Both the position numbers and the translations under genes were made by a program. DNA of 64,000 bases. Origin: Lama guanicoe. Lineage: Eukaryota. How positions within the stretch are numbered: the first letter of the stretch is position 1; each line of letters begins with the position of its first letter. The notes under the pieces were generated by a model. The model was not told the origin of the DNA. It saw nothing but the letters and a program-made list of their open reading frames with translations, and ran no database searches. Shown here one piece after another: positions 53,688-54,278 of the stretch. Location: the NCBI GenBank assembly GCA_013239625.1, contig MU057202.1, forward strand, positions 3,361,101-3,425,100, given 5' to 3'.

Positions 53688-54278
53688 CCGTGTGGGTCCG
53701 GAGGTGGCCTTGCAGCAGCCAGGGCCTGGAGAAGGCCTTGCCACAGACGGCGCAGAGGCAGGGCAGCGTGTGTGTCCGGATGTGCATCTTGAGAGCGCCC
53801 AGGCTGCCATACTCCTTGTCGCAGAACTGGCAGGTGAAACAGCGCTGGGCCTGCAGGGGGCACCGCAGCTGCCGGCGCCTGGCCAGCCTGGCCGGCGCGT
53901 GGGCAGGTCTGTGGCCGTGGAGGGCCTGCTCAGCCCCCAGCAGGCGGCCTGGGGCCTGGGCCCCGTCTGCGCCCAGGAGCGGGGGCCAGCGCATGGGCAG
54001 GGCCAGCAGCGGGGGCAGGTTGAGGTGGTTCAGGCTGTCTCTGAGGGGTGCGCTGAGGGCCCGGCCGGCCCGGGGGTCCGCCCGGCTGACGTCCAGGGCT
54101 TCTGGCCCTGAAGCCCCCAGAGCTTCCTCGTTGCACAGCAGGGGCAGGGAGGTGTGAGCGATGACGGAGGCGTGGTCCCAGGGCTGGGGAGGGTCACCAG
54201 GCGAGGACGGGGCCACCTTGTCTGGGAAGATGAGGGGCACCACTGGCCCCCCGCAGGCAGAACAGGCACCACTGATGT
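53688..54278 (-). CDS. SNAI3: SNAI3 exon 2
   Basis: ccag|[10 protein letters not shown]...[14 protein letters not shown]...[50 protein letters not shown]|gtaggc; 591 nt. Confidence 0.96.

Follow-up and report, generated by a model that had tools for sequence, protein, structure and literature searches.

The window, a 64-kb stretch of Lama guanicoe DNA, contains on its minus strand a complete SNAI3 gene (Table 1). Its three exons, when joined, give 849 nucleotides of coding sequence for a 282-aa protein with a single terminal stop. The introns follow the GT-AG rule at both predicted junctions, and the exon prediction agrees in length with the 282-aa alpaca and Camelus records. SNAI3 lies between MVD and an RNF166-like gene, an arrangement that fits the order of the human locus (CYBA, MVD, SNAI3, RNF166). 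An IL17C-like sequence at 22328 was noted by motif alone, its open reading frame having no Pfam match, and two assembly gaps (runs of N at 831-930 and 21354-21438) are distant from SNAI3.

Table 1. Features of the SNAI3 gene and its neighbours, in positions of the window
Feature	Position	Strand	Remark
SNAI3 exon 1 (coding)	57033..57108	-	first 9 codons encode the N-terminal SNAG repressor motif
SNAI3 exon 2	53688..54278	-	low-complexity linker, finger 1 remnant, fingers 2 and 3
SNAI3 exon 3 (coding part to stop)	51741..51922	-	fingers 4 and 5
SNAI3 finger 1 remnant	53860..53925	-	deletion junction near 53925-53920
SNAI3 zinc finger 2 (C2H2)	53770..53832	-	intact
SNAI3 zinc finger 3 (C2H2)	53692..53754	-	intact
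SNAI3 zinc finger 4 (C2H2)	51843..51905	-	intact
SNAI3 zinc finger 5 (C2HC)	51753..51821	-	Ala at helix +2; last Cys shifted by one
CYBA	31233-31556		downstream of SNAI3; PF05038
MVD	34422-36424		downstream of SNAI3; PF18376, PF22700
RNF166-like	63553-63999		upstream of SNAI3; weak zf-Di19 match, E 0.0098, below cut-off

The naming of the gene as SNAI3 in the original prediction was confirmed by the neighbouring genes, by database matches and by phylogeny. The top match of exon 2 was alpaca SNAI3, with 99% identity over the exon, and of the 282 residues of the whole protein 2 differed from the alpaca record and 7 from the Camelus record, only one of these 7 lying in fingers 2-5. In a 42-row tree the window protein was placed inside SNAI3, apart from SNAI1 and SNAI2, with support of 100/98, and the camelid proteins and every finger-less record tested fell within SNAI3. 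Two marks of the Snail family were present, namely the SNAG motif in the translation of exon 1 and a C-terminal array of four or more C2H2/C2HC fingers whose helices are of the Snail type. SNAG was invariant in 26 aligned artiodactyl records, with 0 parsimony changes among artiodactyls, and was unchanged in both of the finger-less clades, artiodactyls and feliforms.

The exon 2 peptide that had been reported earlier was found exactly in a minus-strand frame of 53300-54399, and both a codon map and finger scoring bore out the claim that finger 1 is dead and that four fingers are left. About ten codons including the first Cys had been described as deleted in frame. The deletion is in frame and removes Cys1, but it comprises nine codons at finger 1; the tenth residue that is missing when the 292-aa gibbon record is aligned falls in the linker, upstream of the finger. 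The predicted replacement of Cys2 by Gly (53916-53914) and of both His by Arg (53877-53875 and 53865-53863) was also seen, but it is not the second His that matters as fourth ligand, because the residue that follows it is Cys in 53 of 53 mammal records with an intact finger 1, whereas the second position itself is His in just 44 of these 53. This last Cys is retained in the window at 53862-53860. Three of the four zinc ligands (Cys1, Cys2 and the first His) are therefore gone, and the remnant, with the last Cys as its sole canonical ligand, fails the finger pattern Cys-x(1-5)-Cys-x12-His-x(3-6)-His/Cys given in the accessible text of PMC2688512.

No Pfam family matched the 41-aa remnant at E 0.05. 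Compensating frameshifts that might mask a whole finger were considered and rejected, as the other frames contain no Cys-x2-Cys finger-1 pattern. An AlphaFold model of alpaca SNAI3 (mean pLDDT 47) placed residues 1-169 below pLDDT 50, followed by four fingers, and the model of a bat SNAI3 used as control (mean pLDDT 56) had five fingers with finger 1 folded; both models are of modest confidence and were built from different alignments of 26 sequences each, that for alpaca being artiodactyl-only. The camelid remnant is thus predicted to be unfolded and to lengthen the disordered linker.

The original prediction had held that the lesion argues against a sequencing error. Finger 1 was found broken in both the alpaca and the Camelus records, which carry the same deletion and the same lost ligands as the window, and the Camelus record is supported by several accessions. 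In all other artiodactyl records finger 1 is broken by other lesions. Of 24 listed runs, 14, from five studies and with four organism labels, contained all 74 sampled words of 53600-54400, although 13 of them carry a flag as possible sources of the window DNA and the words need not span the deletion junction. Among the RNA runs, X15 and X16 contained 0.36 of the sampled words, X17 0.24 and X18-X20 at most 0.12, figures that do not amount to evidence of transcription across the junction. The possible overlap between runs and assembly is what might speak for a sequencing or assembly error in this genome; given identical lesions in alpaca and in the multi-accession Camelus record, such an error has a negligible probability. 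In P0056, a camelid-like open reading frame, about 90 residues are missing, from the linker almost up to finger 2, which is likely a misassembly.

The spread of the loss was examined in 123 named mammal SNAI3 records, about one per species, chosen from 449 proteins after exclusion of unnamed contigs, extra isoforms, same-species duplicates, some close relatives and a fin whale model broken in finger 2. Finger 1 was scored as intact by Cys-x2-Cys-x12-His-x3/4-His/Cys. By this measure 66 of the 123 records have an intact finger 1 and 57 are without it. It was intact in none of 36 artiodactyls, 14 feliforms, one tree shrew and one armadillo, and the outcome was mixed in pangolins (2/3), eulipotyphlans (1/2) and afrotherians (5/8). 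All records had it intact in caniforms (18/18), bats (8/8) and perissodactyls (2/2), and likewise in primates (6/6), colugo (1/1), rodents (15/15), lagomorphs (3/3), marsupials (4/4) and platypus (1/1). Fingers 2 and 3 were intact in all 123 records, and fingers 4 and 5 in all 120 that include exon 3, which three records lack.

A Dollo count on a hand-written species tree gave nine losses in mammals: artiodactyls, feliforms, hedgehog, giant pangolin, tree shrew, aardvark, tenrec, one elephant shrew and armadillo, the last seven of which are represented by one species each and could include assembly errors. The loss had been proposed to be convergent and lineage-specific. Its independence from the loss in SNAI1 stands, but it is not lineage-specific, since finger 1 is broken in 36 of 36 artiodactyls and in at least eight other mammal lineages. 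Counted by lineage, it is also not the state of most mammals, as primates, rodents, lagomorphs, bats, caniforms, perissodactyls, marsupials and platypus keep finger 1. The 14 feliform records (P0127-P0138, P0031, P0186) share a 6-residue deletion before finger 1 together with the loss of Cys1, and 12 of 12 felids are also without 14 helix residues of the finger.

SNAI2 served as control and had finger 1 intact in 71 of 71 records. These cover cattle, goat, sheep, whales, hippo, cats, meerkat, tenrec and elephant shrew; camelid and pig SNAI2 were absent among those listed. The general rule that mammalian SNAI1 has four fingers was too wide (see below). The window protein does not have five intact fingers, and five fingers do not define the SNAI3 group, because the 57 mammal records without finger 1 lack them too.

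Outside mammals, finger 1 of SNAI3 failed in 15 of 60 records and fingers 2-5 were broken in none. The failures include ostrich, kiwi, three crocodilian records and two agamids, and that of Candoia is a mere one-residue spacing shift. Ostrich, kiwi and the three crocodilians (P0238, P0247, P0228, P0433, P0434) have different finger 1 remnants, which may represent one archosaur loss or two. No neognath bird SNAI3 was found among the matches listed.

Rates of change were expressed as Fitch parsimony amino-acid changes per filled site relative to the linker, on a hand-written tree, and are not dN/dS values. In the finger 1 region these rates were 1.39 in artiodactyls and 1.84 in feliforms, compared with 0.56 in the laurasiatherians that keep the finger and 0.40 in primates, colugo, rodents and lagomorphs. 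The artiodactyl value differed from those of the two keeper groups (Fisher p 0.029 and 6e-5, respectively), and the feliform value differed from the second (p 0.024) but not significantly from the first (p 0.21). For fingers 2-5 the rates were 0.32 in artiodactyls, 0.18 in feliforms and 0.30 and 0.28 in the keepers, with no difference (p 0.23-0.91). Gaps in finger 1 occurred in 0 of 58 finger-keeping records. These rates and gap counts indicate purifying selection on an intact finger 1 and freedom from it in a broken one, with the rest of the protein constrained in either case. The clear conservation of finger 1 in the lineages that retain it means that it is not useless everywhere. Helix positions -1, +2, +3 and +6 of finger 2 were invariant in all groups tabulated, as were the base-facing helix positions tabulated for fingers 2-5, apart from +2 of finger 5.

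The constraint on fingers 2-5, which equals that of the finger-keeping groups, bears on the idea that the whole of SNAI3 is turning into a pseudogene in camelids and that finger 1 was merely the first part to be lost. Snai3 is dispensable in mice according to the accessible text of PMC3675094, several finger-less lineages are on long branches in the 42-row tree, and among artiodactyls the camelid remnant is the most altered, with Gly in place of the usual last Cys of finger 5. However, the frame is open, the splice sites are canonical and SNAG is whole, Camelus and the window are one residue apart across fingers 2-5, and the shift of the finger 5 Cys is also seen in tarsier, marsupials, geckos and snakes, the next Cys being kept in 19 of 19 Snail records with the shift, those of camelids among them. 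A gene on its way to becoming a pseudogene is therefore very improbable.

A remnant that still binds zinc or serves the structure, by way of its helix or of other Cys or His residues, is equally hard to credit. Most artiodactyls do retain the last Cys, along with several residues of the helix and linker, and a Cys lies six residues before Cys2 in bovids and hippo, but in deer and many whales Arg or His stands in place of this upstream Cys, and it has been deleted in camelids, where one canonical ligand is left and no fold is predicted. Continued constraint on the helix half of the remnant was not supported, as this half changes at 0.83 of the linker rate and is indistinct from the linker (p 0.45). 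When the two halves of the artiodactyl finger 1 were taken separately, neither was significant (hairpin p 0.37, helix p 0.62).

Within artiodactyls the remnants differ. Pigs, peccary, ruminants and hippo miss three residues including Cys1, pigs and peccary with one more missing in the helix; whales miss nine and sperm whales 15; camelids miss nine, in a register further upstream than in other artiodactyls. In the protein alignment there are six deletion patterns, with no single deletion common to all letter for letter. Camelids and most whales have arrived at the same net loss of nine residues before finger 2 through different deletions, which is probably a coincidence. A Thr that is invariant in 53 of 53 keepers has become Ala in camelids, pigs, peccary and most ruminants. 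Because this change is common to these groups, relaxation before the camelid split is favoured, and the Thr-to-Ala change and a Ser-to-Ala change in finger 5 (see below) both fit changes on the common artiodactyl stem.

The register of the camelid gap, which lies further upstream and leaves both residues before Cys2 in place, raises the question of whether camelids lost finger 1 by a 9-codon deletion of their own, independent of a 3-codon deletion ancestral to pigs, ruminants, hippos and whales. The finger has been lost often elsewhere, so that two losses in sister lineages are possible. The camelid codons would fit either such a 9-codon event or a further, out-of-phase loss of 6 codons added to the shared 3-codon deletion, as both give the same codons; derived residues of the remnant are common to camelids, pigs and ruminants, and one event is simpler than two. 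A separate camelid loss is thus somewhat unlikely, and a single loss on the artiodactyl stem appears clearly the better supported of the two histories.

Camelid SNAI3 has an open frame, four intact fingers and a dead finger 1. As far as the aligned proteins can tell, this finger was probably lost a single time, in the common ancestor of whales and even-toed ungulates, and then decayed under relaxed selection. The first artiodactyl hit would have been a 3-codon deletion that took Cys1, followed by lineage-specific erosion of perhaps six further codons in camelids, six in whales, 12 in sperm whales and one in pigs and peccary.

A second change distinguishes the artiodactyl proteins. At helix position +2 of finger 5 (51788-51786, minus strand), Ala is found in each of the 35 complete SNAI3 records of artiodactyls, in contrast to Ser in 84 of 85 other mammal SNAI3 records and in the SNAI1 and SNAI2 records listed. 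The lone exception is an elephant shrew, which is likewise without finger 1. On the alignments, this substitution and the loss of finger 1 both map to the artiodactyl stem. In addition, the usual last Cys of camelid finger 5 is Gly (51758-51756) and a Cys is found one residue later (51753-51758, minus strand). The same shift was present in 19 Snail records of 390 proteins scored, including tarsier, marsupials, geckos and snakes. Failure of finger 5 through the Cys-to-Gly change was accordingly rejected, many of the 19 having finger 1 intact, and the shift is likely to be tolerated.

In the textbook C2H2 code, helix position +2 can contact a base. The uniform Ala of artiodactyls might thus reflect adaptive retuning, in which the loss of finger 1 and the Ser-to-Ala change altered the DNA sites or partners of SNAI3 and were selected, possibly towards SNAI1-like behaviour; SNAI1 and SNAI2 are said to depend on different fingers in the accessible text of the review PMC12284022. 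However, seven of the eight other mammalian lineages that lost finger 1 keep Ser, including 14 of 14 feliform records, so that a causal link between the two changes is unsupported, and an axolotl record has Ala at +2 although its finger-1 ligands are kept. Furthermore, no other tabulated helix position of fingers 2-5 varies, SNAI1-type residues are found at 0 of 20 differing columns, and the many different deletions in the remnant are as expected from decay. Selected retuning is hence quite unlikely. A broader proposal, that vertebrates have dropped finger 1 of SNAI3 about fifteen or more times and that the loss in the artiodactyl ancestor was accompanied by a finger 5 Ser-to-Ala change giving the SNAI3 of cattle, pig, camel and whale other DNA sites or partners than that of mouse and human, is unlikely as a whole; if true, the protein of these animals would be unlike the mouse and human one behind all functional work.

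The original prediction had also called the protein SNAI1-like. This holds for the finger count, as the four-finger architecture characteristic of SNAI1 is present in the window SNAI3, but not for the sequence. Camelid fingers 2-5 are 84-92% identical to those of seven five-finger SNAI3 proteins, 84% to those of six SNAI2 proteins and 79-81% to those of eight non-placental SNAI1 proteins. Convergence to SNAI1 in sequence was rejected, as the majority SNAI1 residue was found at 0 of 20 differing columns and the tree places the protein apart from SNAI1. For SNAI1 itself, the finger-1 ligand pattern still fits the platypus record and 11 of 12 marsupial records; 19 of 20 non-placental records fit it, the 12 marsupial ones being visibly degenerate. 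A fully four-finger SNAI1 thus appears, from these alignments, to be the placental state. In the marsupial SNAI1 records (P0294, P0439-P0449 and P0260, a set that includes platypus), finger 1 is half-decayed, with a Pro in the helix and the last ligand shifted, and is lost in wombat; it looks like an intermediate stage of the known SNAI1 loss, and platypus keeps the finger.

Loss of a minor finger on a redundant paralogue, which is weakly selected, would account for the repeated losses in SNAI3 and for none having been seen in SNAI2. In the accessible text of PMC4507178, the absence of finger 1 "seems to not affect" localisation or DNA binding, a partial finger 1 is described for Nematostella SNAILB, and the role suggested for finger 1 is in protein contacts or nucleolar localisation. 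By comparison with other Snail proteins, finger 1 may add little to DNA binding or nuclear import. Snai3-null mice are reported as normal, and SNAI3 as binding E2 boxes, in the accessible part of PMC3675094. That of PMC3713067 reports that mouse Snai2 compensates for SNAI3. A back-up of SNAI3 by SNAI2 could leave finger 1 under weak selection and lead to repeated loss by drift.

By analogy with mouse SNAI3, SNAG would recruit co-repressors and fingers 2-5 would read the E2 box, so that camelid SNAI3 is likely to be an E-box repressor still. Binding of the E2 box CAGGTG and repression are suggested by the unchanged helix positions of fingers 2-4 together with what is reported for the mouse protein. 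The use of individual fingers may vary within the family: the review PMC12284022, in its accessible text, has SNAI2 mainly dependent on fingers 3 and 4, SNAI1 on different fingers, and E-cadherin repression by SNAI1 on its first two fingers.

The search listings, drawn from literature with few subscription journals, contained no report of finger-1 loss in SNAI3. In their accessible texts, PMC10435889 gives SNAI3 as a five-finger protein with SNAG/E2-box repression, and PMC5401887 gives five fingers to gecko Snail paralogues; that of PMC4620432 contributed nothing further. The four-finger SNAI3 of artiodactyls, feliforms and other lineages is real and apparently unreported, although the sequences are already in public annotations. 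Although descriptions of SNAI3 give it five fingers, the protein of livestock, whales and cats has four, and caution is advisable in carrying mouse and human SNAI3 results unchecked to muscle and thymus of pig, cattle and camelids. The loss is not evidence of camelid adaptation. Horse and cattle, or dog and cat, offer natural pairs for testing the role of finger 1, and the many SNAI3 losses form a useful contrast with the invariant SNAI2 finger of the same animals and with the half-decayed SNAI1 finger of marsupials.

Among known systems, the camelid protein is closest to the vertebrate SNAI3 proteins (Snail3, Smuc), with which it has in common SNAG, the high identity of fingers 2-5 and the gene neighbours, and from which it differs in a finger 1 minus three ligands, the Ala at +2 of finger 5 and the last Cys one residue later. 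It resembles human SNAI1 (PDB 3W5K chain B, E 1.6e-61, pairwise alignment) in that an eroded finger-1 region is followed by four fingers corresponding to fingers 2-5, and the same logic of repression may apply. However, SNAI1 is another paralogue, towards whose residues, as compared with non-placental SNAI1, camelid SNAI3 shows no shift, and it is essential in mice while SNAI3 is not, according to the accessible texts of PMC3675094 and PMC10435889. SNAI2 (Slug) resembles SNAI3 as the paralogue that compensates for it in mice, and differs in keeping finger 1 in every record, even where SNAI3 of the same lineage has lost it. Finally, the loss of Snail finger 1 is already known as a kind of event, having occurred several times in the family (PMC2688512, and cases in PMC4507178), with the same finger gone and the other four kept. 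The accessible texts of these two papers name SNAI1-type and invertebrate cases, among which artiodactyl, feliform and reptile SNAI3 do not appear, and the SNAI3 losses differ from these in having occurred in orthologues, with no new duplication.
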